This document shows, in pieces, positions 261-17,661 of a stretch of 20,888 nucleotides of DNA. Made by a program: the position numbers and the translations under genes. Origin of the DNA: Candidatus Thorarchaeota archaeon. GTDB lineage: Archaea; Asgardarchaeota; Thorarchaeia; Thorarchaeales; Thorarchaeaceae. The stretch lies in contig JBHLRS010000030.1 of the NCBI GenBank assembly GCA_048882325.1, positions 16,642-37,529 of the forward strand, in the 5' to 3' direction. The notes below the pieces were generated by a model. That model was not told the DNA's origin. It did no database searches and saw only the letters and a list, made by a program, of their open reading frames with translations. Within the stretch, counting starts at the first letter, position 1. Each line of letters begins with the position of its first letter.

Positions 261-287
261 AGTATTACAAGGAGCCATATCCCCCTA
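261..287 (+). repeat. Imperfect direct repeat, copy 1 (left flank of accessory block)
   Basis: AGTATTACAAGGAGCCATATCCCCCTA matches 5036-5062 (AGTATTACATACAACCATATCTCTCTA) at 21/27 positions without gaps. Confidence 0.55.
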
Positions 288-312
288 GTTCCTCAGCACA
301 ATCCATTTACTT

Positions 313-843
313 TCAAAAGTCATCAATACTTGTTTGGATTGACATTTCTGGAATTCTCTCCTCAAACCTTCTAATGACTTCTTTTGTTAAGAGATATTTT
401 ACGTAGCCATCTTCTATGATTTGATTCTGAGCATATTCAAATTCTCGACAACTAGCAATAACCTCATGGATTGACAGGTATGTCCTCAATCTTTTCCGCG
501 ATGGTTTTTCAGACTGCTTTCCATACATCTCATAGAATTGATTGATGTCAAGGTTTCGGCAGACAAAGCAGCTACAATTCAAGTCTTCTCCAACCATATC
601 GTTGTGTTGGTTTCTAGTTAGGAAACCAAGTGTAGTTGTATCAAATCTGGTTTCAGGTTTTGATTCTGAGGGCCCACTTCTTATTTGTGTAATTCTAGGT
701 TCGGTGAAATCTGGATCACTACCTTCAGGCACTATATCAAGTCGTAATTGCTCTGTTTCCTTCTTACGAGGACCCGAGGGATACTTGTAGCTCGAAATGC
801 TATCGAAAGTGAATAATGGCATTAGATGCAAAGATGCAACCAT
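313..843 (-). CDS. tRNA-guanine transglycosylase (TGT)-fold protein, C-terminal half (Zn-binding motif, PIP-box-like tail)
   Basis: CSCFVC...IH resembles the TGT CxCxxC-Xn-H zinc site, and FTFDSIS resembles the last barrel strand (GxDxFD). The protein ends QTSIDDF. The frame is open upstream of the ATG through the A7 run at 858-864. Confidence 0.55.
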   Translation of the reverse strand: MVASLHLMPLFTFDSISSYKYPSGPRKKETEQLRLDIVPEGSDPDFTEPRITQIRSGPSESKPETRFDTTTLGFLTRNQHNDMVGEDLNCSCFVCRNLDINQFYEMYGKQSEKPSRKRLRTYLSIHEVIASCREFEYAQNQIIEDGYVKYLLTKEVIRRFEERIPEMSIQTSIDDF

Positions 844-1364
844 AGAATTAGCTCTACTTTTTTTGGAGCTCCAGTAAGATGAATCCAGATATCTGATTTA
901 GAAAGAGTACGTGTCACCTGCATAGCACTTGGGATTTTTCCAGCCCTATACCGAATGGCAATAACATCATACCCGCTATCTTTTAGGTGCAACAAACGTT
1001 GTTCCATTGAAAGTGGTTCAGTGCCAAGGTCCAAATGTGGCACAATCCGAGTGCTATCTAAACCCAATTGATCAAGCATATTTCTTGAAACATTTAAGGC
1101 ATCCAACAATCGACTACCACTTTTTTCCTCATAGCTTGGATCAGGTACAGATATCATATCAGTAGCGCTGGATTTCACCTGCATCAAAGCAACCATTTCT
1201 AGTAAATGGGGGTCTATAGCTTCTTGTTGCCCCCTAATTTGGATGTTACAAAATCTCATACGATGTGGACCATTCTTGCAATGTTGTCTTATTCTTGATG
1301 ACTGATAGTTAAAAAAACGATTATCTGTTGAGAGACGTTTGATATCATCTGTTTTAAAATCCAT
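822..1364 (-). CDS. TGT-fold (TIM-barrel) protein, N-terminal half; joins 313..843 by a -1 frameshift
   Basis: Strand motifs DMISVPD, IVPHLD, GYDVIAI and WIHLTG occur in the order expected for TGT-family barrels. The ORF ends shortly after HLTG, where a TGT would continue into the 313..843 sequence. Confidence 0.5.
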   Translation of the reverse strand: MDFKTDDIKRLSTDNRFFNYQSSRIRQHCKNGPHRMRFCNIQIRGQQEAIDPHLLEMVALMQVKSSATDMISVPDPSYEEKSGSRLLDALNVSRNMLDQLGLDSTRIVPHLDLGTEPLSMEQRLLHLKDSGYDVIAIRYRAGKIPSAMQVTRTLSKSDIWIHLTGAPKKVELILWLHLCI

Positions 1365-1371
1365 TACTGCT

Positions 1372-3135
1372 TCAAGACATTAGCCAAACATCGACATCAT
1401 ATACTCCGCCATAACCGTTCCCGACACTGACACGTATTCTATAGTATCCTTGATCGTCAGTCCAGTCATAGGATTCTGTCGAACCAGCTCCATAGTCATC
1501 AACTGTCGCAATTAGCTGACTGTAAGCATCATATATCTTGAAGGCAACATCGAAATCGGAACGTCCAGGCGCGACAGAGATTATCATATACCTATCATCG
1601 CCATAGGAATAGTATCTTAGCCAATCGGCGTCATCAGCCCAACAAGGCTCATCATCAAATTCGAAGTGAATATCTTCACCTGATGCCCCTTCACCTAGAA
1701 AGTAGTTGTAAGCAACATCTTCATTCACTAATGATATAGACCTATTTCCCCACAATGATGCTAATGCACCTCCAAGACTGGAATTTGAATAGTATGACCC
1801 AGCGTAGGCTTGACAAGAAGCGAAAGTCTTTCCACACATTGCTGCGGCCCAGAAGTATTTTGAATAATTGGCAGCTTGTATTGTATATGGACTGCCCTGA
1901 TATCCAAAGAATGCTTTTGCACCAGCATCCAGAGCTGCAGAAGAAAGATATCGGTCAATCATTGAGGGAGCAGAGGTTGTCCAACCACCGCCACAGGAAG
2001 ATGTGTAGACGATTATTGCCTGAGACATATTCGAAGGCACATCTGTAGTTTCTGTGTCGGAATCATATCCGAAATCTTCGTTGTTCTTACATGTGATCCA
2101 GCTTCCTACCCCAGAACTACCGTGACCATGTCCTGTAAAGAACGCAATTTCAGCAGTATCCCAGTCATTCACGAGGTCAGCAACCCAAACTGTAGTGTCC
2201 GAAGTAGCAGAGTAATTATTACTCTGTAGCGCATTACTAACAACGGTGCGCTCCTCTGTGTGAGCAGGATCAAGATTGTCTTCGCTATCCCTTCCTTGGG
2301 CTAGTTTTGCTATTCCATTATAGTTCGTTTTCTCATGGTGAAGTATCTCTCCAGAGTGGATAGAAACAAAATCTCGACCTATGACAGTTCCGTCCCCAAT
2401 AATGTCAAACATCCAGATTGGTTCGTGAAGGCTTGGTTCGTCTAATTTGGGAAATAGAAATGCACCTTGATAGTGCGTTCGTACCGTGATGTCTTGATGC
2501 TGGTGAGGTCGGGGTTCAGCTTGAGACAGGAGCATGTCATCAAAACTTGTTACATGAACCTCAGACCATTTCAATCCAAATGACCTAATTATGCCTGACT
2601 GAGGATCAACTCGAATACGAATGAACTCATCCCATACAGGAATTCCTTTGATACTATGAAGCCATTGGAAAGTCCAATCAGATTCTGATGTCATTAGTCC
2701 TTGAAACTCAGATTCTAGAGGTAGATCGAATATTCCTTCATCCCCTAGTCTTCCAACGAAATCCATGACAACCCTTTCCGCCTCAACTTTAGTCAAATCT
2801 ACCTGAAGCTTGGGTAATTTCGTACGTGTGTCCACAATATGTACTAGTTCCAGAGTGTCTGGCTCAAATTCCACTCGAATCATGTCCGAACCATCGCTAG
2901 TCCAAGCAACAACCCATTGAAGCTTCCCCGTACCAGGATCTGAAACAATGCTACAAGTTTCTAGAAACAGTCCAGAAGTATCTCCGATTATCTTGGATGC
3001 TGCAGAATATACTTGGGAGTTCTCATTTTCCGCTGTTGAACTTGGTCGTGGTAATGTAATGAACAACAAACACAGACTAAGCATGATCCCTAGAGCTAAC
3101 AGTTTTCTCTTACGTGACCTATGATCCCTATGCAT
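1372..3135 (-). CDS. Secreted putative clan CD (caspase/gingipain/CHAT-like) cysteine peptidase with PepSY/YcdB-like prodomain and C-terminal PPC domain
   Basis: Basic N-terminus plus hydrophobic signal/anchor. IAFFTGHG (His codon 2128-2130) and IVYTSSCGG (Cys codon 1993-1995) lie 45 aa apart, each after a hydrophobic strand, followed by GAKAFFGY. The C-terminal DADWLRYY...SDFDVAFKIYD...GYYRIRV...YDVDV pattern is PPC-like. Confidence 0.7.
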   Translation of the reverse strand: MHRDHRSRKRKLLALGIMLSLCLLFITLPRPSSTAENENSQVYSAASKIIGDTSGLFLETCSIVSDPGTGKLQWVVAWTSDGSDMIRVEFEPDTLELVHIVDTRTKLPKLQVDLTKVEAERVVMDFVGRLGDEGIFDLPLESEFQGLMTSESDWTFQWLHSIKGIPVWDEFIRIRVDPQSGIIRSFGLKWSEVHVTSFDDMLLSQAEPRPHQHQDITVRTHYQGAFLFPKLDEPSLHEPIWMFDIIGDGTVIGRDFVSIHSGEILHHEKTNYNGIAKLAQGRDSEDNLDPAHTEERTVVSNALQSNNYSATSDTTVWVADLVNDWDTAEIAFFTGHGHGSSGVGSWITCKNNEDFGYDSDTETTDVPSNMSQAIIVYTSSCGGGWTTSAPSMIDRYLSSAALDAGAKAFFGYQGSPYTIQAANYSKYFWAAAMCGKTFASCQAYAGSYYSNSSLGGALASLWGNRSISLVNEDVAYNYFLGEGASGEDIHFEFDDEPCWADDADWLRYYSYGDDRYMIISVAPGRSDFDVAFKIYDAYSQLIATVDDYGAGSTESYDWTDDQGYYRIRVSVGNGYGGVYDVDVWLMS

Positions 3136-3207
3136 TCATACGAACCCTCCACGATTCTATTCAAAACCTATCCTATACTAATAAAAAAACATTCGGCTAT
3201 CTAAATA

Positions 3208-3654
3208 TCATGGGCTTGACCGAATGAGTGTCATTAATTCAAAGAGGGAAGTCACGACTCCAAATAGAAGAATACTGAGAAAAAGAAATGCAACATCATT
3301 CGTCACTCTGTTGAGAATAATTACTGTATATGTCAATAGTATGAGGTAGAATGAAGAGTATAAAGCAAAACGAGGAACTAAACTATTTCTGAACTTGAAG
3401 TAGAATCTCGTTATTCCAACACGAACTGTTTTTGTCACAACATAATCTCCATGTGCAAGTTTGTCAACAAGTCCTAGATCCATTAGCTTTCGAAGATGAT
3501 ATTCAGCAAGACTTGGAGCTGACAGACCTGTTCCTTTCTGAACAACTTTTCTGTCAACTGGTTTTCTTTCTTTAAGTAGAAACCAATAGACCTTGAGAGT
3601 TCGGCCGGTGAGCTGGAACTCCATATCCTGTTCATCTTCAGTAATAGACCCCAT
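3208..3654 (-). CDS. Membrane-anchored winged-helix transcriptional regulator
   Basis: N-terminal wHTH (TLKVYWFLL...GLSAPSLAEYHLRKLMDLGLVDK...GDYVV) followed by two C-terminal hydrophobic helices. Confidence 0.8.
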   Translation of the reverse strand: MGSITEDEQDMEFQLTGRTLKVYWFLLKERKPVDRKVVQKGTGLSAPSLAEYHLRKLMDLGLVDKLAHGDYVVTKTVRVGITRFYFKFRNSLVPRFALYSSFYLILLTYTVIILNRVTNDVAFLFLSILLFGVVTSLFELMTLIRSSP

Positions 3655-3685
3655 TCAACCACGCTTCCAGTTGTTCCAGAGTCTC

Positions 3686-4834
3686 TTATCCTTGATAGAT
3701 TCTCCGTTTTTGAGCATAACCTGCAATAATTGCTACCATTACAGAAGAAACTAAGGCAACTGGAATGATTGAGACTGGTAGTGGCTGACGTTCTCTGGTT
3801 TCAACAGGGATATCAACTGGTCCATTTGTCTGTCTTTCTTCTAAGAACTCACCGGAAACAGCATCCACGAATAACCACCATAGCTTGTTTGAAACATTGG
3901 ATGCGATTGTCCATGTGAGATGTAGTTGTGGTGAACCATCTTGAGATGTAAGAGAGTGTATCTCAATGAGTGAGAGTCGACTAGCAACTATTGCTAAATC
4001 CACGGCCGAACTGTTTCGTAGTGCTATAGTTTCTGCATAATCCTTGGACTTTACATCAAAAACAGGTATTTCACCTATCTTTGTCCAGCGATACCCAAAT
4101 TGAGTGACGATTCCAGTTGAGTTAGAAACACGTACAGTGATTCCTTCCGATGTGTATGCTGGATGTATATCCTCATTGAGAAATTGATTGCCCACCTTGA
4201 AGGATCCTTCGTAGTGATGGAACTCGACATAAAAGCCGTCAAGATCTGATGGATACTGATTAACACCCATAAATCGAGCAGTTGTAGGAATTGAATAGTT
4301 GTTCAGTCTGAGGAACTGATATGCAAGCATCTCGACATCCTCAGTAGAATTCACCAAAACCCTGTTCGATTTCGAGCTTGAATGAGATGAAAGATTCCAT
4401 CCTATGATTTCGCCAGTAATTGCATTGACTCGGATTTGAGTATGCACATTCGGACCTTCCACAATGAATGCCCATGTAGGTTGAGTGTCCACAAGATCGG
4501 CCCAGACTGTTACATCTTCCAATGAACTTTCATTCAGATTCAATCTAAGAAATGCGAATACCGCTGTCTGCGCTTGTACCCGAGTGAGTAGAGGTTGGTT
4601 CCAAAGATTGGAATCAATGTAGTATGACGGTGTTGATACTGTCATCTCGCTCATATCGAATAGAGGATATGTTCCTGATTCTTGTAGGTTCGAAAAAATT
4701 GTATTATCTATAGTAACACCCTCAGGCGCGTCGAAGACAATAACGTAATCAGCAAGACCAAGAATGGTTGTACTAAGTAGAACGCCTATTACTATGCCGA
4801 GAATAGATTTCCTTCGCAAAGACCAATCTGGCAT
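3686..4834 (-). CDS. Extracytoplasmic PepSY/YcdB-YcdC-like repeat protein with N- and C-terminal membrane segments
   Basis: N-terminal signal/TM and a C-terminal TM with basic tail. Repeated PepSY-like motifs (PTWAF..IRVNAITGEII; ITVRVSNSTGIVTQF; LFVDAVSGEFL). Several N-x-S/T sequons. Confidence 0.65.
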   Translation of the reverse strand: MPDWSLRRKSILGIVIGVLLSTTILGLADYVIVFDAPEGVTIDNTIFSNLQESGTYPLFDMSEMTVSTPSYYIDSNLWNQPLLTRVQAQTAVFAFLRLNLNESSLEDVTVWADLVDTQPTWAFIVEGPNVHTQIRVNAITGEIIGWNLSSHSSSKSNRVLVNSTEDVEMLAYQFLRLNNYSIPTTARFMGVNQYPSDLDGFYVEFHHYEGSFKVGNQFLNEDIHPAYTSEGITVRVSNSTGIVTQFGYRWTKIGEIPVFDVKSKDYAETIALRNSSAVDLAIVASRLSLIEIHSLTSQDGSPQLHLTWTIASNVSNKLWWLFVDAVSGEFLEERQTNGPVDIPVETRERQPLPVSIIPVALVSSVMVAIIAGYAQKRRIYQG

Positions 4835-5035
4835 GTCGAAACTCCCAGAAATACTGTGGTATTATTCCTTTAATAGACTAACTTTTTCAACAATGCTACA
4901 AGCTCAACATATTCATACATCTTCATTCATCCAATATTCTATATAATTTCTAAGCCAATTAGAACTCCGACAACAATCATACTTGTTTCTGTGAAGCGGA
5001 CTCGAATGCAATCCTATCTACTCGTATAGGCTCTC

Positions 5036-5062
5036 AGTATTACATACAACCATATCTCTCTA
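5036..5062 (+). repeat. Imperfect direct repeat, copy 2 (in cdrS-ftsZ upstream region)
   Basis: 21/27 identity to 261-287; ends 31 nt before the cdrS ATG. Confidence 0.55.
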
Positions 5063-5093
5063 TGACGCCTGTGCTATAGAGGAAGAACTAGAC

Positions 5094-5279
5094 ATGCGTC
5101 TCATAGCTGTGCATTTGCCTGAGAAGATTGTTGAAGACATTCAACGCCTTGTAGACAAAGGTCTCTATCCTAACAGGTCTGAAGCAATTCGGAACGCTAT
5201 TCGTGATTTGTTGAAACGAGAGTTATGGGATGGTACCATGAACACAGGTGGTAGATTGAGTGAGGTAGTGGGACAATGA
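5094..5279 (+). CDS. cdrS: Ribbon-helix-helix regulator CdrS (CopG/MetJ family)
   Basis: MRLIAVHLP...LVDKGLYPNRSEAIRNAIRDLL is a typical RHH sequence. ATGA overlap with ftsZ matches the conserved archaeal cdrS-ftsZ2 arrangement. Confidence 0.88.
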   Translation: MRLIAVHLPEKIVEDIQRLVDKGLYPNRSEAIRNAIRDLLKRELWDGTMNTGGRLSEVVGQ

Positions 5280-6529
5280 AGTCGTTGATTGATTCTGCAC
5301 GTGAACATAGCCGAGGAGAACGATGTACGTCTACAGTCCGTGATATGGGCCAAGCCCGGATAGTGGTGGTGGGATGCGGCGGTGCAGGGAATAACACCGT
5401 GAAACGGCTCATGACTATTGGTATTCAGGGTGCAGAATGTATCGCAATTAACACAGATCGTCAACATCTGGCTGTCACAACAGCACACAGGAAACTCCTG
5501 ATTGGTGAACGAATCACCCGAGGACTGGGCGCTGGTGGATACCCTCATGTCGGACGGGCTGCTGCTGAGGAATCAACAGGACAATTGACCGAGCTCCTAC
5601 GTGATGCGGACCTTGTTTTCATCGCTGCAGGTATGGGTGGAGGAACTGGTACCGGAAGTGCGCCTGTAGTAGCTGAGATTGCAAAGAACAGTGATGCGAT
5701 TGTCGTCGGTGTCATTACAATGCCCTTCAGTCTTGAGAGAACCCGTATTGACAAAGCAAAGGCTGGCCTGGCTCGTCTACAGGAGAATGTTGACACAGCT
5801 GTAGTGATTGATAACCAGAAACTAATGGAGCTAGTTCCCGACCTACCCTTAGAGGAGGCCTTTGGAGTTGCAGATGAAGTCCTTGCAAATATGGTGAAGG
5901 GCATCACAGAAACCATAACCATGCCTAGCCTGATCAATCTAGACTACGCTGATGTTCGTTCAATAATCTGCAATGGTGGAGTTGCTCTGGTAGGGCTTGG
6001 AGAAGCAACGGGGAGCGATCGAGCCAATGAAGCAATCCGCAACGCTCTCAATAGTCCCCTCCTAGAGGTTGAATGGAGTGGAGCCACTGGGGCTCTGATA
6101 CATATCACTGGAGGTCCTGATATGAGTCTGGCTGAATCAAACAAGGTCGGTGAACTCGTATCCGAGAAGATGAGCTCTGATGCCAATGTCATCTGGGGTG
6201 CTCGTGTAGACCCTCGGCTCAGTGGAGTCCTCCGTGTGATGTTGATTCTTACTGGTGTCAAGAGTCCTCAACTACTAGCACGGTCCAAAGAAGAAGGCAC
6301 TCTATCCTCAACAACAAGACGTCTTGCTGAATATGGGATCATCAGTTCCCAGACTTCAATAGGGTCTCGAGAGGCTCGTGAACGAGCATTCGGAAAAATC
6401 CCTGAATCAACTGGTAGGTCTTGGGAAGACCGCCTCAAACCATTAGAACGCACTCTGTCACGAAAACCAAAGGAGAAAGAGGTAAAGAAGAGAGACCTTG
6501 AGGAGCTTGGACTTCGAAAACTTCTCTAG
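5276..6529 (+). CDS. ftsZ: Cell division GTPase FtsZ (FtsZ2-type by context)
   Basis: GCGGAGNN, AINTD, tubulin signature GMGGGTGTG, T7 loop INLDYAD, IWGAR; about 85-aa low-complexity C-terminal tail. Confidence 0.97.
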   Translation: MKSLIDSAREHSRGERCTSTVRDMGQARIVVVGCGGAGNNTVKRLMTIGIQGAECIAINTDRQHLAVTTAHRKLLIGERITRGLGAGGYPHVGRAAAEESTGQLTELLRDADLVFIAAGMGGGTGTGSAPVVAEIAKNSDAIVVGVITMPFSLERTRIDKAKAGLARLQENVDTAVVIDNQKLMELVPDLPLEEAFGVADEVLANMVKGITETITMPSLINLDYADVRSIICNGGVALVGLGEATGSDRANEAIRNALNSPLLEVEWSGATGALIHITGGPDMSLAESNKVGELVSEKMSSDANVIWGARVDPRLSGVLRVMLILTGVKSPQLLARSKEEGTLSSTTRRLAEYGIISSQTSIGSREARERAFGKIPESTGRSWEDRLKPLERTLSRKPKEKEVKKRDLEELGLRKLL

Positions 6530-6635
6530 TCCCGAACTGAATCAGACGCCTTATTCGCAGCAATAATGCTGACTTTGCCTAGTATTGACTCAGAGATGTA
6601 TTTTGGTCACATGCTCATTTGTTCATAGTGACTGT

Positions 6636-7067
6636 TTATGCTAGACCGTGTTCTTTCAACCAGTCATCTGCAATGACTGCGACTCGCTCATAGAGTGGGC
6701 CACTGCCCTCGATTCCGTCCTTTGAGATACGGATCTTATTCATGACGAGTATTATTCCTGTATCAGGATAGAACTGCACTCCGCCAGGCGGAAATGTCTT
6801 CTCTAGCTCCTTTGCAAGCCCTTCAAGACTAATCTCTCGCTCAGCAACTGAGAATGAAACAATACTATTACCGTAGAGAAATATCTTTGGAATATTTGTT
6901 TCACCATCAGCAACAACATCTGCGAGGACAATACTCAGGGTATTCTGATCAATCCCCTTCAGGGTGCCTGCATAGGTCTTGCCCGTGTTGATTACAACTT
7001 CTACTGTTGCGCCAACAACTGCTGCAAGCTCGCGGTTGAAGGCTCTCATTGCTGCGACATCTGACAT
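6636..7067 (-). CDS. Sm-like RNA-binding protein with C-terminal extension (SmAP3/Lsm type)
   Basis: Sm1 (VEVVINTGKTYAGTLKGID..LSIVLADV) and Sm2 (IFLYGNSIVSF) motifs plus a ~65-aa C-terminal domain; GGTGA SD upstream. Confidence 0.88.
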   Translation of the reverse strand: MSDVAAMRAFNRELAAVVGATVEVVINTGKTYAGTLKGIDQNTLSIVLADVVADGETNIPKIFLYGNSIVSFSVAEREISLEGLAKELEKTFPPGGVQFYPDTGIILVMNKIRISKDGIEGSGPLYERVAVIADDWLKEHGLA

Positions 7068-7217
7068 CTAGTTTCACCACTAATGTGATTGAAATCAGAG
7101 TGGAGGGCGCAGTCATGCCGTTTTAAAATTGATGCTAGCACGGTTTGCAGTCTCTCGGTGCTTAAATTGTACTAACATCACGTCATGACAGTTCATAACA
7201 GAGTAGAGGCCAGATAT

Positions 7218-8192
7218 ATGGCAACAACACAAGTTCAAGAGATAATCGAATCCGAACAAGTAGAACCATCCGCGTGGTCATCATTCAGTCTCCTCAAAGT
7301 AGGCGGAATCATGCTAGCGATTGCTGCAGCCTGGCGAGTAGTGGATCAATTTGTACTCGGTCTTGGTGATACATGGTTGAATATCATGCCCTCAAAGCTT
7401 TTCCCATTCCTGCTTATAATCGGCTTTTTCTGGAGATATCGACCCCACGAAATCGACTCGGTACTTGGTTTGACAAGAGAGAACTTTCAAGCACAACTTG
7501 CCGTTGGACTGTTGATTGGGATAGCAATTTCCTTTGGTATTGATTTTGGTGGGACAATTGTATACGGACTTTTTGTAGATTCAACATATCCTTTGCAATT
7601 CCATATTTTGAATCCTGAATTACTAGGATACATGTTGGTCTTCTTTGTGACTAACGCATTTCTCGAAGAAACCCTGTTCCGAGGTCTATTGATTAACGCT
7701 TTCAAAACCAGTCAAAGTTCCACCCGAGCAATACTACTGTCTGCCATTATTTTTGGTGTTTGGCATGCAGGCTGGCCCCTAGTAAATGGGTTTGCTGATA
7801 GTGAAGTAATGAACCAAGTTGTCTCAATGGTTTTTTTCACAACGATTCTAGGGATATTCCTTGGCATTTACTACGAACGGTTCAATTCTAGTCGGTCTCT
7901 TGTTGGTCCTATCTTCATTCACACGATGTTCAATTATGTCAGTGAATGCTTCAAGATTGGTCCTGAGCCAGTAATTCAGGGTCCAGATCTTATTTTTTCA
8001 AACCCTGGACTCATGGCTACTACACTTCTAATGTTCTTCTTGATATTCATTCCACTTGGTATAATTCTATGGAAATTTAAAATCGAACAGGCTTCGGTCA
8101 TATGGTACCGATTGGTTGGCAAAGAAAGCGACGGAGAACAGACACACTCTGATGATGAAATACTGACAAGTAAAAATGATAGTGAGGTTTAG
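7218..8192 (+). CDS. CPBP family intramembrane glutamic/metallo-endopeptidase (Abi/CAAX)
   Basis: EETLFRG, FGVWH and IHTMFN motifs; many TM helices. Start placed at ATG 7218 after GAGG (ORF track starts at 7185). Confidence 0.88.
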   Translation: MATTQVQEIIESEQVEPSAWSSFSLLKVGGIMLAIAAAWRVVDQFVLGLGDTWLNIMPSKLFPFLLIIGFFWRYRPHEIDSVLGLTRENFQAQLAVGLLIGIAISFGIDFGGTIVYGLFVDSTYPLQFHILNPELLGYMLVFFVTNAFLEETLFRGLLINAFKTSQSSTRAILLSAIIFGVWHAGWPLVNGFADSEVMNQVVSMVFFTTILGIFLGIYYERFNSSRSLVGPIFIHTMFNYVSECFKIGPEPVIQGPDLIFSNPGLMATTLLMFFLIFIPLGIILWKFKIEQASVIWYRLVGKESDGEQTHSDDEILTSKNDSEV

Positions 8193-8195
8193 ACA

Positions 8196-8885
8196 ATGCA
8201 AATTGGTACAGATTTAGTCCTGATGTCGAGCATGGCAACGGTAATCGTCGCCCTTTCCCTCGGAGGTTACCTGGGTCGAAAGTGGTTGTCTCAGAAGGCT
8301 CGGCTCATCACAGACCTGCCTTTGGTCTTTGGAATCGCCTTCGTGAGCCAAGCCTTCAATATCACGATAGTCACACTACAACACATTGGAATATTGCCAG
8401 ACGCAATGATATTCTTCCGGATTCGCACAATAGGGATTGGTGGTTCAATCATCCCGATATTTGGTGCTATCCTTCAGATTTGGACACCCTCTATCCAGAA
8501 ATATCATAACCGGTTGGTCTATCTGCTCACCCTCTATTGGTTGGCTATAGACTTCCTTGTGGCAAGTGAAACCCTAATCATGATGCTGCTCATTCCAGTC
8601 TTGGTTATCTTGGGAATCATGATGATGTTCACATTCATCATAACTTGGAGAACTGGTCGTCTGAAAGAGGTTCGTAGCGAACTCATGGTCATATCAGTGC
8701 TATTTGGTATGGCCAGTCAAGTTCTTCGAGTCCCGTTACTTACTACATCTCTGTTCTATGTCCCGGATATATTGCTAGCAATCTCAATGCTTCTAACAGC
8801 ACTTGCGTTTGCCAATCCATGGTATAACAGAGAAATCACGCCACGAGCAGAAGAATCTCCACACATGGTTGCCGTATCTGGTTGA
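8196..8885 (+). CDS. Polytopic membrane protein (~7 TM), unknown function
   Basis: Successive hydrophobic helices; GAGG SD; 3 nt after the CPBP stop, so probably co-transcribed. Confidence 0.75.
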   Translation: MQIGTDLVLMSSMATVIVALSLGGYLGRKWLSQKARLITDLPLVFGIAFVSQAFNITIVTLQHIGILPDAMIFFRIRTIGIGGSIIPIFGAILQIWTPSIQKYHNRLVYLLTLYWLAIDFLVASETLIMMLLIPVLVILGIMMMFTFIITWRTGRLKEVRSELMVISVLFGMASQVLRVPLLTTSLFYVPDILLAISMLLTALAFANPWYNREITPRAEESPHMVAVSG

Positions 8886-8898
8886 TAGTTAAGAGAAC

Positions 8899-8933
8899 TA
8901 CAGCAGGTCCAGAGATCTCTGGTCCTTGCTGTA
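8899..8933. repeat. 35-nt near-perfect intergenic palindrome
   Basis: TACAGCAGGT-CCAGAGATCTCTGG-TCCTTGCTGTA: perfect 14-bp core, one T-T mismatch and one bulge in the arms. Confidence 0.75.
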
Positions 8934-9000
8934 CCACTTTGTCGCAAAATGAGTAGATTAAAATCTAGTATATGCAGATAGAAGAGTGGAGGAGTTATCG

Positions 9001-9492
9001 ATGGCAATTGATGAACCAGACCCAACCCCGAAACCACAGGCTTATCACAGTTCTCCGCTCATGCAGTTTGAATCGAGTGCGTTGTTTGCAATGATACTTC
9101 AAATCGCTGCTGGAGCTATCACAATTCTCATGTTCGGACCTGCGTTGATTATTCTCCTGCCATTATTCTCATTGATGCCAGAAGGTCCTGTAAATCCCGT
9201 TGGATTCTACAGTCTACTACTGCTGATTCCCATCTCGATAGTGCAACTCTATATGGGCTATCGCCTCTTCAAGAAAATCCCGAACACAGTAACAATCTCA
9301 GTCATTTCAGACCTTCTTGCTTTCGCGTTGTATGTCGCGAGTCTTGTTTCCTCAATAATGACTGATACCCTGGCCTCTTCGCCTCAAATCTACATTGGTG
9401 TTATCGGCATCAATCTCTGTGCAGCAATCCTTCTGCTGTTACCATCTTCGCGGGATACTTTTGAAGGACAGAAATGGACTTCCCCGTATTGA
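9001..9492 (+). CDS. Small membrane protein (~4 TM), unknown function
   Basis: GGAGGAG SD before ATG 9001; four hydrophobic segments. Confidence 0.72.
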   Translation: MAIDEPDPTPKPQAYHSSPLMQFESSALFAMILQIAAGAITILMFGPALIILLPLFSLMPEGPVNPVGFYSLLLLIPISIVQLYMGYRLFKKIPNTVTISVISDLLAFALYVASLVSSIMTDTLASSPQIYIGVIGINLCAAILLLLPSSRDTFEGQKWTSPY

Positions 9493-9551
9493 AGCCCCTA
9501 GAGAATGTGTTATTAGTCTCTCAATCTGCACCGGAACTAGGTGTAGGTCCT

Positions 9552-10379
9552 ATGGTCCGCCAGAAGCATTTCGCCAGACAATATTTGAGAGAGGAAACTC
9601 TCGGTACTCCTTTCTGTCCAGGCTGTGGAGCTGGAGAAGTCAGCTCTGCATTTCTGAAAGCAGTTGGAGATCTAGGTCATGAGGACCTGAGCAAGTTAGC
9701 ATTCGTTTCTGGTATTGGATGCAGTGCATGGATTCCTTCTCCTCATTTCCAAGCAGACACGTTACATACAACGCATGGTCGCGCAATTGCTTTTGCAACG
9801 GGCCTCAAATTAGCACAACCTAAGCTGAGGGTGGTTGTGATTAGTGGTGATGGGGACCTTGCTGCTATTGGAGGGAACCATCTCATTCATGCTGCCAGAC
9901 GGAACATGGACATGACCGTGATCTGTGTTAACAACTACATCTATGGGATGACCGGTGGACAAGTAGGACCAACGACTTTCACTGGAGACCGTACAACCAC
10001 ATCGCCATATGGTAATCCAGAACGTCCATTTGATCTAGCCAGACTTGTGGCCGCAGCAGGAGCAAACTATGTCGCACGATGGACAACAGCTCACCCAGTA
10101 CAAGCCGCACGAGCAATCCGGACGGCGCTTGAACGTGAGGGTTTCTCATTCATCGAGATGATATCACAGTGTCCAACAGCATACGGCAGAAGAACAAAAG
10201 CCGGAAGCCCTCCAGAGATGCTGAAGTGGTTCAAAAAGTTCCCTGTTCGAAAGAAAGGTGAACCCATTGACCAGAGGATACCAACAAAAGAAGGAATGGA
10301 CCTCGGGGTTTTTGCTGACCGGCATGAGAAACCTTTCACTGAACTTCTGAGTGACATGTATAGTGGTTTAGGAGAGTAG
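9552..10379 (+). CDS. korB: 2-oxoacid:ferredoxin oxidoreductase beta (TPP-binding) subunit
   Basis: FCPGCG, SGIGCS, HTTHGRA, SGDGD...GGNH...NN..YGMTGGQ, SQCPT. Start placed at ATG 9552 after AGGTG. Confidence 0.93.
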   Translation: MVRQKHFARQYLREETLGTPFCPGCGAGEVSSAFLKAVGDLGHEDLSKLAFVSGIGCSAWIPSPHFQADTLHTTHGRAIAFATGLKLAQPKLRVVVISGDGDLAAIGGNHLIHAARRNMDMTVICVNNYIYGMTGGQVGPTTFTGDRTTTSPYGNPERPFDLARLVAAAGANYVARWTTAHPVQAARAIRTALEREGFSFIEMISQCPTAYGRRTKAGSPPEMLKWFKKFPVRKKGEPIDQRIPTKEGMDLGVFADRHEKPFTELLSDMYSGLGE

Positions 10380-10385
10380 AGGTCA

Positions 10386-10910
10386 ATGAGGACCGAGATC
10401 AGAATCGCTGGTACAGGTGGAATGGGTGTTGTTCTAGCTGGAGTGATTCTGGGACATGCTGCTGTTGTCTATGGGGGTCTTGAGGCTGTACAGAGTCAGA
10501 GCTATGGTTCAGAGGCAAGAGGTACCGCAGCAAAAAGTGAGATTATCATAAGCGATCAACCAATCAAATATCCCAAAGTCCGGGAATCAGACTATTTCAT
10601 TGTGATGTCCCAGAAAGCTCTCGAAAAGTACATTGACGGTGCCAAAAAGGACAGCGTTCTCATCATAGATCCTGACCTTGTAAACACTAAAAGTATCAAA
10701 GGGTTTGAAATTGTTGAGGTCCCAGCTATGAAGACTGCAGACGAATTGGGGCTCAGGCTTGTTTCCAACATGGTCATGCTAGGCGCCCTTGTGAAGAAGT
10801 CAGGTCTGTTCCCGCTAGAGACCCTTGAGAAGGCCGCCGTAGATTTGATTGGTGCGAAGACGCTCGAATTAGATGTCAAAGCAATAAAAGCCGGGGCGGA
10901 ACTCGTCTAG
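10386..10910 (+). CDS. korC: 2-oxoacid:ferredoxin oxidoreductase gamma subunit
   Basis: EIRIAGTGGMGV, QSYGSEARG, NMVMLGAL; directly after the beta subunit. Confidence 0.92.
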   Translation: MRTEIRIAGTGGMGVVLAGVILGHAAVVYGGLEAVQSQSYGSEARGTAAKSEIIISDQPIKYPKVRESDYFIVMSQKALEKYIDGAKKDSVLIIDPDLVNTKSIKGFEIVEVPAMKTADELGLRLVSNMVMLGALVKKSGLFPLETLEKAAVDLIGAKTLELDVKAIKAGAELV

Positions 10911-11185
10911 CCTCCGTGTATCAACGGCAGGACCACTACAACATCATTCTCGTTCATCTTTGTGTCAAGTCCCCCACTGAGACCGATGTCTGCACCGTTG
11001 CACAATATCAATGAATCACGATCAACCACTTCAGGATTTATCCACGCATCCTTGATGATATCTTGGCTCTCAATCACAGTTTTTAACAAATCCGAGAGAC
11101 TCGCATTGTTTTTCACTTCGACTACTAGAGTTCCCTCGGTGAACTGCTTTGCCAATGGACCTCTGATTTGAAGTGTGACTCTCAT
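10907..11185 (-). CDS. MoaD/ThiS/SAMP ubiquitin-like sulfur carrier
   Basis: 92-aa beta-grasp pattern (ILCNGADI..GGLDTKM.ENDVVVVLP) ending in di-glycine IHGG. Confidence 0.9.
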   Translation of the reverse strand: MRVTLQIRGPLAKQFTEGTLVVEVKNNASLSDLLKTVIESQDIIKDAWINPEVVDRDSLILCNGADIGLSGGLDTKMNENDVVVVLPLIHGG

Positions 11186-11284
11186 GATGTGTTGCCACTC
11201 GTTGTGGGTGAGTGAATGCTTGATAAAGTGCGTGCTTTATGCTCAAGTATGAAGCTCTATATGTAATTGATTTGAGGCGTTGTC

Positions 11285-12802
11285 ATGGCTGCGGAAAGCG
11301 AGCAGGAGAAACCTGAGATAGTTAGAAGCAGGTATGCTCGCATATTTGGTATCGCAGAGCCAACTGAGCAAGTTGTTCGTTTTATCCAGATTATTTCCGT
11401 TCTACTTCCTGCTTTCGCAGCAAGTTTTCAAATTAGTACGACCTTCTGGATGATTTACATTGCTAGATCCCTTGGCAATGGTGACGAGATAGCTGGTCTC
11501 ACCTTTGTCGGTATTCTTGTTGTCATCCAGATGGCAATTCAGACTGCACTGGACTATCCCACAGGAGCCATTGGGGATTGGATAGGACAGCGGTATGTCA
11601 TCACCTCAGCACTTCTCTGTTATGCAGTCGCCTTTGCTCTTACCTCACAGATTGTGAAGGACACCCCGGCACCAATTTGGATCTATGTTTCTATCTATGC
11701 CTTGTTCGGTCTTGGGTCCTCGCAGGAGAGTGGTGCTTTCAATGCTTGGTTCGATAACAACTATCGCGTCGCTATGCCACATGATACGGACCGAAAGCAG
11801 TATGGAGTGTTTCAAGGTCGACTTGGTATGGTGTGGCAGATATCGTCAACCCTGGTGCTGCTTCCAGGATCGTGGCTTGCACTGGTCTATGGAGAAACAT
11901 GGGTCTTCAATTTACAGGCTATCTTTGCTGTCATTTTGGCCATCATAGTCTTCAGAACGGTTAGAGACCTCCCTGGAGTCAGAGATGAGAAAGAGGAACG
12001 ACCATCACTTGGAGAGTATGCTTCACTCCTCAAGGATGGTTTTAGATTTCTATGGTCTAGTCGGTTTGTTACGCTCATCATCTTTGGGGAGGTCGTGATG
12101 TGGAGTATTGGACCGGTCTGGTGGAACCTCATCCTATTTCCTCTCTACTACAGTTTCCTAGTCACGTTCGTGGCTGTTTCAGCCTTTCGGACTCTGGTCT
12201 TCGTTCCACAAGCTCTAGCGAATGAAAGGAGTGGTGTACTAGCCAAGAGGTTCGAACCAAAGAAATGGATACCACGATTTAGGTTTCTACAATTTACAGG
12301 AGTCATCTTCTATCTCGTACTATCCGTGATAGTGTATCTGTTCCCTGGTGTCCCGGTAGGAACGAACCCCGAAACACTTGAGTATCATAAAATATTGATT
12401 CCTTTTACGAATCTCCCATTGATTGAGATTCCCAAACAGACAGTGATTCCGGTTCTTCTACTGTTCATCCTATTCGTTGCGCTTAATGTGTTCGGTGCGA
12501 TTGCTGGAATCCTGACTCAGCGTGTGATGCTGGACGTCATCCCGAATCGTATCAGAAACTCGATGTACTCCCTACAACCTACACTTGTCATGCTGGTTTC
12601 GATGCCACTTATAGCATTCTTTGGTTGGTTCATCCCCTTCACAGGAGGTTTCTTTCACACATTTTTGATATGTGCGGCAATATCTCTACTGGCTGTACTG
12701 ATGATTCGCGAGGCCTTCAATAACCCGATACCGAAGGCCGATGAGCTGGTACCTGCTACCGATAAGGAGCAGGAAGAGGTTCAAGAGATGGAAGTAACGT
12801 AG
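11285..12802 (+). CDS. MFS transporter
   Basis: Motif A-like DYPTGAIGDWIGQR, about 12 TM segments, C-terminal-half DVIPNRIRNSMYSL. Confidence 0.88.
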   Translation: MAAESEQEKPEIVRSRYARIFGIAEPTEQVVRFIQIISVLLPAFAASFQISTTFWMIYIARSLGNGDEIAGLTFVGILVVIQMAIQTALDYPTGAIGDWIGQRYVITSALLCYAVAFALTSQIVKDTPAPIWIYVSIYALFGLGSSQESGAFNAWFDNNYRVAMPHDTDRKQYGVFQGRLGMVWQISSTLVLLPGSWLALVYGETWVFNLQAIFAVILAIIVFRTVRDLPGVRDEKEERPSLGEYASLLKDGFRFLWSSRFVTLIIFGEVVMWSIGPVWWNLILFPLYYSFLVTFVAVSAFRTLVFVPQALANERSGVLAKRFEPKKWIPRFRFLQFTGVIFYLVLSVIVYLFPGVPVGTNPETLEYHKILIPFTNLPLIEIPKQTVIPVLLLFILFVALNVFGAIAGILTQRVMLDVIPNRIRNSMYSLQPTLVMLVSMPLIAFFGWFIPFTGGFFHTFLICAAISLLAVLMIREAFNNPIPKADELVPATDKEQEEVQEMEVT

Positions 12803-12807
12803 GACCT

Positions 12808-13773
12808 CTATTTCTTCTTAGTAGTTTCAATAGACTGCTTGAGAACGTCCGCGTTCAGCTCGCCAGCATGGAATACCTTTCCACTCTCTATGTGATTGAA
12901 TGTTATCTCTGCTGGACTGAATAGGAGTGGGTCCACTTTATAGAAGTCGTTCCCAACACTCTTGAACAGGTCATAGAATGGCTGACCATACTGTTCCGAT
13001 GAAGACGATGGGACTTTCCTAATGACTTCGTTCAGGTCTTTGTCATCATCACGGACAAAGTAGAAGGTCCTACCACCATAGAGGATACAGTCGTTAGTGA
13101 CGCCCATTGCCCTGGCGTCCTTCTTAGCCACCGGTGCCACAGGAGCTACACCATATCCTGATCTCACTCTATCAAGGTCAAAACCAATTTCATGCAATTT
13201 GTGCATTCCTACTTCTACAACTCGGGCTGAAACCTGGATCGAACCCACAAGACAGGCTGTTGGGGCAAGAAGACAGTAGAGGTCTGATGTTGCTATATTG
13301 CATTTGTCTGCGATATATTGAGCAACACTATCTGGAGGAGCGTCTCTGGTTTCAAGTAGAATCACACCAACTTTGGCGTCATCCGCATAGTCGAGATGCT
13401 TGTACAGCTTCTTCTCAACACGCGCAAGAGCTCTTGCTGGACCTGAACCCATTGCAAAGTAACCCTCCTCGTTGATTACCCAACCTGCATACTGGGACCC
13501 CATACATGCAATCTTTGGATGGTCCGAACTCACAACAACGGCAGGTAGATCCATGTCTCCAATGTGCATCTTGGTATGCCTAACGACGCCATGCCCTCCG
13601 AGACATATCTCACTCACCAATCTTCCGAGCTCATTAGTACCAGCAACCTCGATGCCAGTATCGATGACTGTTGTACCATTCTTCAGTTCACTGACAGTAC
13701 AATCCAACTCCTCTTTGTTATCCATGATTTCCTTCGCAATCTCGTATGCTCCTTCATTTACACTAATTTTCAT
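12808..13773 (-). CDS. mch: Methenyltetrahydromethanopterin cyclohydrolase
   Basis: ISVNE, CMGSQYAGW, MGSGPARALA, APTACLVGSIQVSAR, TNDCILYGG, DFYKVDPLLFSPA. Confidence 0.96.
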   Translation of the reverse strand: MKISVNEGAYEIAKEIMDNKEELDCTVSELKNGTTVIDTGIEVAGTNELGRLVSEICLGGHGVVRHTKMHIGDMDLPAVVVSSDHPKIACMGSQYAGWVINEEGYFAMGSGPARALARVEKKLYKHLDYADDAKVGVILLETRDAPPDSVAQYIADKCNIATSDLYCLLAPTACLVGSIQVSARVVEVGMHKLHEIGFDLDRVRSGYGVAPVAPVAKKDARAMGVTNDCILYGGRTFYFVRDDDKDLNEVIRKVPSSSSEQYGQPFYDLFKSVGNDFYKVDPLLFSPAEITFNHIESGKVFHAGELNADVLKQSIETTKKK

Positions 13774-13783
13774 GTCCTCTTCC

Positions 13784-14638
13784 TCACACTAAGTGCTGAT
13801 TTTTCGACGCCCGAATGAATATCTCCTCGCCTGGTGTTGCCTCAGCGAAGTCTCCCATGTATTTGACCCATTTCTCTGAAGCCTCAATATCCTCGGACAA
13901 GAAATCCGGTCTGCGGTCTTTCAAATATCGCAGATAGTAGTTGATGAATTCTCTCTCAGAACTTCCACTGAATTTGTAGGTTGGGAACAGGGAGTCCATT
14001 TTTCCAAGACAGAAAATCATTCCTTTTGTCGCCTGCACGCCAACACGTTCAGCCATGTCGCCGACAACGATTATAGTGCCACCCATCATGCGAATTGCAG
14101 ATTGGGGTCCTACATTGCCTTTCACTGCAATGAACCCTTTCCTCATATGCGCTGCCATCTCGCGTCCCGCATTGCCTGCCACATAGACGCGCCCTCCCTT
14201 CATACCTTCGGGAGTCCCGCGGTATCCAGAACAGAGATAGTCTCCTGCATCACCTTCAATCTGGATATTGCCTCCTTCCATCTCTGCTGCAGCCCAAGGT
14301 CCTACTGATCCTTTGACATGAATGCGACCCGCTATCATCTCTGCTCCAAGATACATCCCCGCATCCCCCTCAACGGTAATCCTCCCTCCGTTCATACCTT
14401 TTCCAATCATCTTCACATTCTTGAGGTCACCCTTGACCAAAATCTCGGTTTCATCTGGAGTCGGACCACTTTCGCCACTAAGGTCAAAGAAGTCTTTGAG
14501 TTTGAGAACTTCATTGCCTTGTTGAACGGGTATCTCCCCGATCTCCTTCACACTCTTTCCAGCAAAGTGCGTGGGTGTTATTGTATCCGCCTCGAGAGGT
14601 ATAGCGGGAGCCTTTCTAAGTGACAAAATCACGGTCAT
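13784..14638 (-). CDS. fwdC: Formylmethanofuran dehydrogenase subunit C
   Basis: PLEADTITP, beta-helix GxxMxGGxIxVxG repeats, YRG...GMKGG, YMGDFAE. Start placed at ATG 14638 after AGGTGG. Confidence 0.93.
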   Translation of the reverse strand: MTVILSLRKAPAIPLEADTITPTHFAGKSVKEIGEIPVQQGNEVLKLKDFFDLSGESGPTPDETEILVKGDLKNVKMIGKGMNGGRITVEGDAGMYLGAEMIAGRIHVKGSVGPWAAAEMEGGNIQIEGDAGDYLCSGYRGTPEGMKGGRVYVAGNAGREMAAHMRKGFIAVKGNVGPQSAIRMMGGTIIVVGDMAERVGVQATKGMIFCLGKMDSLFPTYKFSGSSEREFINYYLRYLKDRRPDFLSEDIEASEKWVKYMGDFAEATPGEEIFIRASKNQHLV

Positions 14639-14764
14639 GAGCCCAACCACCTTTTGTTTTTCGTGATGACATCCCCCTGATAAAACCTACTGCAGTTCTA
14701 AAGGTAGACGGAAAAAAGAAAAGGTGCCCTTGTTCCAGAAATTTCACTCAGCTGGTGGCGTTAA

Positions 14765-15661
14765 ATGGAGATAAACGGAGTTCCAATCGAAGACACATTC
14801 GCTGAAGCCTTTGGCATGCACATGAATCGAACAATTATCACTGCGTATACTGAGGAGTGGGCACGGATTACTGCCACAGAAACGACCGGTTTCGGGACTT
14901 CAGTAATCATGGCTCCAGCAGAAGCAGGGATTGAATACATCATGTCGCCTGACGAAACGCCAGATGGGCGTCCAGGTGTTAGAGTAATTTTCGCTGTAGG
15001 ATCAAAGAAGAAACTCGAACCACAACTACTTGCAAGACTTGGCCAGTGTGTCCTAACAAGTCCAACTGCATCTGCGTTTGATGACACTCCTAAACCAAAG
15101 GACCTGTATGAGATAGGCAAGAAAGTGGCTATGTTCGGAGATGGCTTTCAGACAAAGAAGGGTCCAATTGATGGAAGAATTCTATGGTTGATCCCAAGAA
15201 TGAGTGGGACCTGTGTCATTCAGAATATGTTTGGACGAGTGAAGGGAGTCGCAGGTGGAAACATAATCTATTGCTGTGAGGATGTAGAAAGCGGAATGAA
15301 CAGCGGAATGGCTGCGGTCAAAGCCATTGAGAAGGTAGAAGGCGCATATACTCCGTTCCCAGGTGGTCTCGTGGGTTCAGGCTCTAAACCCTCTTCAAAA
15401 TACAAAGTCCTGTTTGCATCTACTAACGAGAAGTTCTGCCCTACTCTCCGTGCCATTGTCCCGAATACAATGATTCCAAAGGGTAGTGAGTTTGTGCAAG
15501 AGATCGTCATCAATGGCCTGACTGAATCCTCGGTTGCAGAAGCCATGAAAGTGGCCATAGAAGAGGTCTGTAAACATCCTGGTATCACAAAAATGACCGC
15601 AGGCAACTATGGGGGGAAACTCGGAGAGTATCAGATCAAACTACATGATCTGTTCAAATAG
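14765..15661 (+). CDS. ftr: Formylmethanofuran--tetrahydromethanopterin N-formyltransferase
   Basis: MEINGVPIEDTFAEAF, TPDGRPG, GQCVLTSPT, PFPGG.VGSGSK, EIVING, AGNYGGKLG. Confidence 0.97.
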   Translation: MEINGVPIEDTFAEAFGMHMNRTIITAYTEEWARITATETTGFGTSVIMAPAEAGIEYIMSPDETPDGRPGVRVIFAVGSKKKLEPQLLARLGQCVLTSPTASAFDDTPKPKDLYEIGKKVAMFGDGFQTKKGPIDGRILWLIPRMSGTCVIQNMFGRVKGVAGGNIIYCCEDVESGMNSGMAAVKAIEKVEGAYTPFPGGLVGSGSKPSSKYKVLFASTNEKFCPTLRAIVPNTMIPKGSEFVQEIVINGLTESSVAEAMKVAIEEVCKHPGITKMTAGNYGGKLGEYQIKLHDLFK

Positions 15662-15673
15662 TCCTCTTTCACA

Positions 15674-16516
15674 TTATTTCAGATCTGACTTGACACCATC
15701 AGTTGATATCTTTCCCACTTCTAGCGGCTCTTCCTCAAACATCATTGGCTGATCTGGGTTGAACATTGGTTCTCGGTTGATGAGCCTCTCAATCATATCT
15801 TCCCCAACTTCGAAGGCGTTTCTAATCTGAAACTCTAGGATTGGACTGAAGAGAAGAAGTGGGACAAAGATTACTACCATCACATAGCGTAGTGGCCATA
15901 GATTATAGCTGAAGCCAGGTTCTGCTAAAATCAGCTCATAGAGCTTGAACGCCACTTCTGTAAATCCCCACAGAAAACCAAGCAAAAGACTTACCTGTCT
16001 GATGATTTTCAGAAGATTGAATTTTCTAAAGGCTTCTTCAACCCAGTCATCATAATCAGGTTGTCCTAAGGGGTATCTTAGCACACCCCCTTTTCTGACT
16101 GAGAATATAGCAAGCTTTCCGATGAACTCTAGATTCTCTTTCTCGATGAGGACCACTGTCCGATATCGTTTCCTGATGAATCCACCAAAGGTCATGATGG
16201 AGAACGCTATCATCACCACTACCCAAACTGTGGCAAACACTACGAATAGTGCTATGACTACCAGAATACAGAACAGGGCTGCGTCCCCATCCCCAGCTCC
16301 GCCTCCACCACCATCACACCCTACACAGTCTCCACCTGTGATGAATATCTCCGGTGTCACCGCCACACGACCGGTTTCTCTAGTGTAGACAGCATTGTTC
16401 CCTGGATTGACACCAGTGATTGCCTCAATCTCTTTCTTGATAGACCCTCCCGACACACCATAGATTTGAACTGGAAGAACTTTCTTTTTGGAAGTTTCAT
16501 CCTCAAAACCAAACAA
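15674..16516 (-). CDS. Hypothetical membrane protein with Gly/Asp-rich linker
   Basis: TTG start after GGAG; GDCVGCDGGGGGAGDGD precedes a long hydrophobic hairpin; two further TM helices. Confidence 0.7.
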   Translation of the reverse strand: MFGFEDETSKKKVLPVQIYGVSGGSIKKEIEAITGVNPGNNAVYTRETGRVAVTPEIFITGGDCVGCDGGGGGAGDGDAALFCILVVIALFVVFATVWVVVMIAFSIMTFGGFIRKRYRTVVLIEKENLEFIGKLAIFSVRKGGVLRYPLGQPDYDDWVEEAFRKFNLLKIIRQVSLLLGFLWGFTEVAFKLYELILAEPGFSYNLWPLRYVMVVIFVPLLLFSPILEFQIRNAFEVGEDMIERLINREPMFNPDQPMMFEEEPLEVGKISTDGVKSDLK

Positions 16517-16585
16517 TTACTCCAAACTCCACCACGATATTGGACTCTTGAGATTATCACTTCTTCGATGATGAATTTTTCTGCA

Positions 16586-17536
16586 TTATTGTAGTCCGAC
16601 TGGGTGTTTCCCTGCCAAATCAATTGCTTGCTGAGGCCATTTCCCAAATGTTTGAGCTGCTATATCTAAGTGCCCAACCTCCCGTACATCAAGTCCTAGT
16701 TGTGTTGTCACCACAGCATCTAGTTCTAGAAGATCATTTGATCCCCAGACAAGTCCCAAGTTTGTATACTGTGTAGACTCTGCGAGAAACTCATCCGAGG
16801 CCGAGGTTGAGAAGACTGCCTCGACAACACCTCGAACATCAAAGAGCGAGTGACAGACCTTATTGATATCCATTATACTGTCATTCAGCTTGGAGTCATT
16901 TACACCATGGAATTTCCCTCTGTACGGTGTCGAAATCATTCCAAACAGATTCTTGACTGACATCGTGACACCTATTGTTCCATGTGCAAGTTTTGGCTTG
17001 GCCAGACTAAGTAACGTACCCCCTCGAAGCTCGTAAAGTCTTGATGGTATTATTGAATACATTATCTCATTTGTCAGGGGTTTGAAACGTGTTTCTACAA
17101 GTGATTGGATTTGATCTGGTTCACACACTTGATTGGACCATAATTCCTCTGAGAGATTGAGATACTCTACATCATGTTTCTTCAGAACCTCATCGATTCC
17201 AGTGAAGTCGAGAAACCACTTGTCATTTTCCCGTAAGTCGTCCCTCGTCTGAGCTTCCAGTTTCCTCTCAAGCTCTGGACTGAATGGTCCACTGTGTTTC
17301 CTGAAGATCGGGCTTCGGTAGTGGGCAAAGCTCTCTACAACCATCTTCTCAGAGTCTATTGCAGATAGAGTCCAGTCCAATATCTTTGCTTCAGTGTAAA
17401 TCTTTGATGTCGACCAATTGGGTTTAATCACAACTGGTGGTTTGAGGTTGAGTCTTGAAACAATCTCTATGAAGGATTCTCTGTTTCCTTCTTCACAGAA
17501 CATGACGTGATTTAGGAGTTCAATCTCCCCTGTCAT
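16586..17536 (-). CDS. DUF362 family protein
   Basis: VVIKPNW, LSLAKPKLAH...VTMSVKNLFG, and D-x-x-x-L-D-A-V...LG...GHL C-terminal pattern. Confidence 0.8.
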   Translation of the reverse strand: MTGEIELLNHVMFCEEGNRESFIEIVSRLNLKPPVVIKPNWSTSKIYTEAKILDWTLSAIDSEKMVVESFAHYRSPIFRKHSGPFSPELERKLEAQTRDDLRENDKWFLDFTGIDEVLKKHDVEYLNLSEELWSNQVCEPDQIQSLVETRFKPLTNEIMYSIIPSRLYELRGGTLLSLAKPKLAHGTIGVTMSVKNLFGMISTPYRGKFHGVNDSKLNDSIMDINKVCHSLFDVRGVVEAVFSTSASDEFLAESTQYTNLGLVWGSNDLLELDAVVTTQLGLDVREVGHLDIAAQTFGKWPQQAIDLAGKHPVGLQ

Positions 17537-17661
17537 GGTCTTCTAGAGGAAATCAGTGCATTTTGGCTTTGTGTTCATCTAGGATTGAGAACCCTGTAGA
17601 AATCTTTATCACTAATTTTCATGCGAAAAACGAAATGACAGCCTATGGTTGTCACACGGAA

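Follow-up and report, generated by a model that had tools for sequence, protein, structure and literature searches.

The window, by which we mean the whole 20,888-nucleotide stretch of Candidatus Thorarchaeota DNA analysed here, carries a low-GC insert of 4.8 kb (261-5062) between rpl2 and cdrS, which lie ~115-135 nt apart in nine of ten same-genus genomes. The insert is bounded by a direct repeat of 27 nt, whose two copies (261-287 and 5036-5062, 78% identical) duplicate part of the cdrS promoter region. The accessory-island location suggested in an earlier note on this DNA is supported. No integrase is encoded among its open reading frames, so the insert resembles a decayed element. The right repeat resembles the version of a congener (G013) more than the native left one, which would fit an element that carried a replacement promoter. 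To the left lies the 3′ end of rpl2 (3-194), separated from the preceding rpl23 by a scaffold gap of 100 N directly in front of it, and the gene order supports this scaffold join. Positions 1372-4834 encode a 587-aa secreted protein, a winged-helix 2-TM protein and a PepSY-like protein. The first of these, a peptidase encoded on the reverse strand (1372-3135) and unrelated to the gene considered below, is matched in four of 27 congeners by homologues of 22-32% identity; its 3′ end is complete by comparison with homologues, and its stop codon abuts the truncated gene.

That gene, the subject of this work, occupies two overlapping reverse-strand frames at the left end of the insert. The frame at 822-1364 matches the family profile described below with an E value of 5e-30 and encodes barrel strands 2-7 of a protein resembling tRNA-guanine transglycosylase (TGT), while the frame at 313-864 (E 5e-36) encodes strand 8, the zinc subdomain and the C-terminal tail. 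Public models see little of this, since TIGR00449 matches the 3′ half weakly (E 0.016) and the Pfam TGT family gives only a faint match to the separate halves (E 0.06). The two frames overlap at a run of seven A residues (858-864, reverse strand), past which the 5′ half is out of frame; adding one A restores both frame and length and fuses them to a product of 350 aa, in which the distance from the strand-7 His to the next conserved His is 15 residues, identical to that in the closest intact homologue. The zinc ligands CxCxxC (559-576) and the fourth ligand, a His (466-468), are conserved across the family, the cysteines in 94, 93 and 84% of members and the His in 98%. An Asp equivalent to D156 of the Zymomonas mobilis TGT, a base-recognition residue, is retained at 1140-1142, and a DxxS motif at 793-804 keeps the first Asp but has Ser where TGT has the nucleophile D280. 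The tail QTSIDDF, with its single aromatic residue, is encoded at 316-336, directly before the stop codon at 313-315. Neither a PUA domain nor a DSGG motif is present in the window sequence, as the earlier note had observed; its description of the zinc site and of the C-terminal tail also holds.

The joined product of about 350 aa put forward in that note is, however, not the whole protein. By comparison with full-length homologues, ~68 N-terminal codons are absent, and the alignment of the window copy to the family profile begins at position 59-60 of 375. Homology extends three codons 5′ of the ATG at 1364 and ends at a truncation junction (1365-1374), where the codon of a conserved Glu (1371-1373) shares sequence with the stop codon of the peptidase gene (1372-1374); the correspondence at this junction between LEAVMDF in the window and QETVLDF in its nearest relatives places the start of homology upstream of the window ATG. 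The lost part comprises barrel strand 1, with P34 (95% conserved) and the TPxR and E42 motifs. A search of the source genome, which is 93% complete and has a separate TGT-family gene elsewhere, found neither the missing 5′ piece nor the winged-helix and membrane partner genes described below. With every other conserved residue still in place, the damage is taken to be recent. An intact near-identical copy was found neither in metagenome contigs nor among longer proteins, both of which are weak negatives. In a tree rooted on archaeal TGT (ArcTGT), the root of which is unsupported and which was therefore used solely for the nearest relatives of the window copy, the latter falls in a six-member clade with support 0.996.

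Judging from the sequence, the window copy is probably a truncated and frameshifted pseudogene, although the frameshift at the A run itself may be an assembly error. It is improbable that this copy is functional, whether through programmed −1 frameshifting to the 350-aa product or as an intact gene that has been mis-assembled. The heptamer A AAA AAA qualifies as a slippery site and has the correct phase, and an ATG lies 7 nt past the upstream stop codon; together with the preserved residues these points are in keeping with such a reading. Against it, 14 homologous genes are unbroken and lack an A run at the corresponding place, the RNA downstream of the run folds no better than shuffled sequences (z +0.68) and has no stable structure, and strand 1, with P34 and E42, is missing from the gene and was found nowhere else in the genome, nor were the partner genes. 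Programmed frameshifting was accordingly rejected, having the support of neither structure nor conservation.

The family to which this gene belongs was nearly invisible to word-based homologue searches and was recovered by a full HMM scan, which yielded 222 representatives at 50% clustering. The best 150 of these include 118 full-length members of ~345-465 aa, on which the tail and Pfam counts below are based. The corresponding atlas clusters are unnamed and mostly archaeal. One intact Asgard homologue, P0003, is 38% identical to the window copy; its gene is unbroken, encodes 426 aa and lies in provirus-like surroundings in G033, the one genome among 60 relatives in which a homologue was found. 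Intact copies occur in five further Asgard genomes, and the overall distribution is patchy, with clear members in 7 of 400 Asgard genomes plus a few more distant ones. Weak profile matches in ~320 Asgard genomes are due to the zinc subdomain of ordinary ArcTGT or ArcS proteins and were not counted as members. We found no paper describing this family or its module. A distant TGT-like subfamily was also seen (L029:1417-2613, L030 and L109:2612-3412), in which CxCxxC is absent from L029 and L030; the L029 member ends in the PIP-like tail QTKIIDYF, and the L029 and L109 genes adjoin winged-helix and PIN-like genes.

The AlphaFold2 model of the intact homologue P0003 (pLDDT 90) is a TGT barrel, with Z scores of 23-24.6 to ArcTGT, bacterial TGT and QTRT1, confirming the predicted TGT-like fold. 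Individual comparisons gave 23.4 for ArcTGT, 23.1 for bacterial TGT, 22.6 for QTRT2, 16.1 for DpdA and 14.5 for Cap10, at 7-14% identity, and hhalign of the family against Asgard ArcTGTs gave probabilities of 98-99%; the family is distinct from canonical ArcTGT and ArcS. In the profile alignment the family has counterparts of D156 (59% Asp and 16% Glu across the family), of the His on strand 7, of the leading Asp in GxDxxD and of all zinc ligands. A nucleophile Asp, in contrast, is present in 0 of 123 members as against 7 of 7 ArcTGT controls, its place being taken mostly by Ser but also by Ala, Thr, Gly or Cys, and the Asp of the TDSG motif (D102), which serves as acid/base, has no counterpart in the profile alignment, there being no conserved Asp after strand 3. 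Members end 60-90 residues past the zinc cysteines, lack the tRNA-binding C1 and C2 domains and give no PUA match. What the family shares is a zinc-binding barrel of the TGT type from which both catalytic Asp residues are absent.

Since D280 and D102 are both required for base exchange (PMC5699537), their absence makes TGT or DpdA chemistry unlikely. The earlier note had proposed base exchange or modification of DNA by a DpdA-like enzyme, which these losses and the low Z score to DpdA speak against, with a non-catalytic protein as its fallback; the fallback is the part that survives, for TGT chemistry only. Other polar residues are conserved in the family, namely E42 (95% acidic), E69, D146, H233, H251 and D259, and these could form a different active site, which is why the term non-catalytic has to be limited in this way.

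The C-terminal tail is a real but optional feature of the family. A strict Qxx[LIM]xx[FYW] motif within the last 14 residues is found in 18 of 118 members (15%), compared with 15 of 2109 host open reading frames (0.7%) and a background of 0.7% of internal windows, and the shorter Qxx[LIM] core in 42% of the 118 members versus 6.7% of host frames; because the members are related to one another, a p-value for this enrichment overstates it. In the host, two FEN1/XPG nucleases, PolD DP2, NreA and a Hel308-type helicase are among the proteins that end in the strict motif, but so do NOG1 and a HEAT-repeat protein; for FEN1, PolD and NreA a PIP motif is established (PMC4929162). A PCNA is encoded in the host genome. 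In the P0003 model the tail has low confidence, as expected for a PIP segment, and includes a short helix. Like the tails of PIP-box clients of PCNA, it presents a Q-x-x-h-x-x-a core at a flexible C-terminus; the second aromatic residue (QxxhxxAA) is absent from the window copy, but a number of members, P0022 and P0064 among them, do have it. Conservation of the tail is partial: ~40% of members (50 of 123) have no recognisable motif, so the module must be able to do without clamp binding. Binding of PCNA through this tail, where it occurs, is what we infer from the motif. Strong PIP-like tails are also seen on a DUF2797 and a DUF72 protein of the source genome (L091 and L094; G000 C10 and C13), which are candidate PCNA clients.

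Examination of the gene neighbourhoods revealed a constant companion. In 16 of 17 loci, two of which (G069 and G070) are near-identical, a gene for a winged-helix protein of 150-200 aa lies no more than two genes from the TGT-like gene, and four of the winged-helix matches were outside the training set of the profile, with E values of 8e-27 or better. The L062 gene is intact and tail-bearing and has no such neighbour. The winged-helix proteins carry the signature F-x-P-x-x-x-G-P-Y-S, in which G-P-x-S is invariant. Six of 12 gave weak matches to the C-terminal region of DarG (best E 8e-5), and one of 12 matched the Panacea family PF13274 at E 0.034, which is below the curated Pfam cut-off. Complex prediction for the G033 TGT-like protein and its winged-helix neighbour gave scores of 0.01, 0.46 and 0.00, to which we attach no weight either way.

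A third, toxin-like gene is swappable. It encodes a GNAT protein in four Asgard loci and a 3-TM protein in seven loci (split in one of them); in L063, and judged by eye also in L061 and L057, its product combines an RNase-like DUF4258 domain and a zinc ribbon. PIN-like proteins take this place in the distant members. The split membrane gene lies in two frames at L060:4092-4630, and the other two genes of that cassette are intact. The flanking genes include MazEF, Fic, HEPN, restriction-modification, resolvase and viral or proviral genes. The family probably belongs to a defence or addiction module. The intact cassette of L003 lies at 8941-11286, in a Thorarchaeia-type genome, within a provirus-like region (1235-19914) that encodes a large structural protein, an ATPase and a ParB-domain protein. 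PADLOC returned isolated weak matches alone and no CBASS match. A link to deazaguanine metabolism was another proposal to be followed up, and no queC/D/E, folE, dpd or dnd genes were found in 11 Pfam-annotated loci, in L003 or in the 1.5-kb flanks of five Asgard loci.

The winged-helix family is wider than the TGT-like one, being found in 72 of 400 Asgard genomes, and in L114 and L118 it accompanies PIN-like genes with no TGT-like gene seen in the 1.5-kb flanks. Such pairs suggest a system built around the winged-helix gene and its toxin, with the TGT-like gene as a regulator added to it. In G033 the order is winged-helix, membrane and TGT-like gene, and a single deletion in such an arrangement would remove both partners together with the 5′ end of the TGT-like gene.

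How does this module compare with systems already described? The barrel and zinc subdomain are those of ArcTGT/TgtA (1iq8, PF01702) and bacterial TGT, with which the family also shares the N-terminal hairpin with TP, but it is only 10-14% identical to them and carries a PIP-like tail on patchily distributed, mobile genes; canonical ArcTGT membership was rejected on the missing nucleophile and TDSG Asp and on the absent C1, C2 and PUA domains. Eukaryotic TGT has a non-catalytic subunit, QTRT2 (6fv5), which acts on tRNA together with a catalytic TGT, whereas the present family sits with toxin-antitoxin-like genes. DpdA, the DNA preQ0 insertase (7ui4), is likewise a TGT paralogue in defence islands, but its catalytic core is preserved and its gene is found in clusters with dpdBCD and genes for preQ0; membership was rejected, since the catalytic residues are lost and no dpdB/C/D or preQ0 synthesis cluster was found in the loci read. 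Cap10 of type IV CBASS (9ntn) is another case of the TGT fold being reused in antiviral defence, but it retains D73 and D248, has no zinc site and requires the QueC-like Cap9 and a CD-NTase; the family has the zinc site, neither Asp and no Cap9 or CD-NTase neighbours, and so was not assigned to it.

The closest system logic is that of TIM-B (PF14350, the phage P4 beta-Gop system), in which a TGT-related barrel, proposed to be a negative regulator, is accompanied by swappable GNAT, BECR RNase or 2TM effectors (bioRxiv 10.64898/2026.10.19.760177). Membership was nonetheless rejected, as PF14350 matched 0 of 118 members at E 0.01 and hhalign gave no more than 1.2%, the latter against a shallow template of three sequences; CxCxxC is absent from the three TIM-B proteins seen, and our family has in addition the winged-helix gene and the PIP-like tail. 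These three are Asgard genes (L087, L088 and L089), two of them near-identical although in genomes of different families, so that transfer or bin contamination is possible. The winged-helix partner, for its part, recalls PanA-PanT (Panacea/DUF4065), SocAB and the C-terminal domain of DarG, in that it is a winged-helix protein, bearing F-x-P-x-x-x-G-P-Y-S, beside varied toxin-like genes; PanA carries a GPV signature (PMC8832971) to which the invariant G-P-x-S of the cassette protein may correspond, and the SocB toxin binds the sliding clamp. It differs in falling below the Pfam cut-off, and the described pairs have no constant third gene of TGT fold. A further lead, that SocB might itself belong to PF14350, was dropped when the family search was silent in a Caulobacter control.

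Overall we favour, tentatively and at somewhat less than an even chance, a reading in which a defence module of toxin-antitoxin type, made up of three parts, is regulated by the intact protein, which would ride on the clamp and not exchange bases. The winged-helix protein would keep the toxin in check; the TGT-like protein would perform no base exchange, its barrel and zinc subdomain binding nucleic acid or a nucleotide instead, and its tail-bearing members would ride on PCNA. A particular state of the fork, such as a clamp seized by a virus or foreign or modified DNA, would then release the toxin and lead to abortive infection, a trigger that we purely infer. In the source genome, the partner genes and the 5′ end would have gone in an internal deletion of the island, and the remnant would be inactive. 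That the intact members are specifically PCNA-riding dead-TGT sensors of viral fork take-over or of modified guanines, triggering the toxin through a Panacea-like adaptor, so that the sliding clamp would be a guard post of an archaeal immune system, is rather unlikely.

An unlikely alternative reverses the roles: the TGT-like protein would itself be the toxin, blocking the PCNA pocket or damaging fork DNA in the manner of SocB, and the winged-helix protein would neutralise it, as does SocA, the Panacea-domain antitoxin of that clamp-binding toxin (PMC8832971, PMC9690074). The constancy of the winged-helix and TGT-like pair fits this, a PCNA inhibitor is already known in the archaeal protein TIP (PMC4929162), and the sole copy seen with a tail and without partners is broken, as would be selected for once an antitoxin is lost. 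However, the many tail-less members are hard to accommodate, most loci already have a separate toxin-like gene, the winged-helix gene is found with PIN-like genes elsewhere, the L062 gene stays intact with its tail and no winged-helix neighbour, and a single deletion accounts for the loss of the partners and 5′ end with no need for selection. It is quite unlikely that the protein is instead a co-antitoxin resembling TIM-B, an enzyme of new chemistry that keeps the toxin off, either by producing a small inhibitor or through modification of the toxin or adaptor, until infection lifts the brake, the tail merely positioning it. The matching effector set and the conserved E42, D146, H233 and H251 agree with this, but neither family search nor profile comparison connects the two, TIM-B is said to keep active-site-equivalent residues that are absent here, and the cassette already has a dedicated antitoxin-like gene. 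Highly improbable, finally, is a replisome-coupled enzyme that, like DpdA, writes or removes 7-deazaguanines in DNA. The fold, the zinc subdomain, the D156 equivalent, the predicted clamp-binding type of tail and the frequent restriction-modification neighbours all suit such an enzyme, but both Asp residues required for exchange are missing, the model is far closer to ArcTGT than to DpdA, and que, folE and dpd genes were absent from the loci read.

Triggers are known for few archaeal defence systems. If the preferred reading, that of a clamp-riding regulator, is true, an exchange-dead TGT-fold protein that often has a clamp tag and travels with interchangeable toxins would connect the surveillance of replication with abortive infection. 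The window copy is a poor subject for studying this because it is probably dead, and the intact cassettes of G033, G069/G070, G228 and G275 are better suited. The winged-helix family also occurs in a second type of Asgard cassette (L110, L113 and L116), together with a membrane gene or a PIN gene, with a gene for a small nuclease-like protein and with a further conserved protein of no assigned function that has the motif FIDPxTY.
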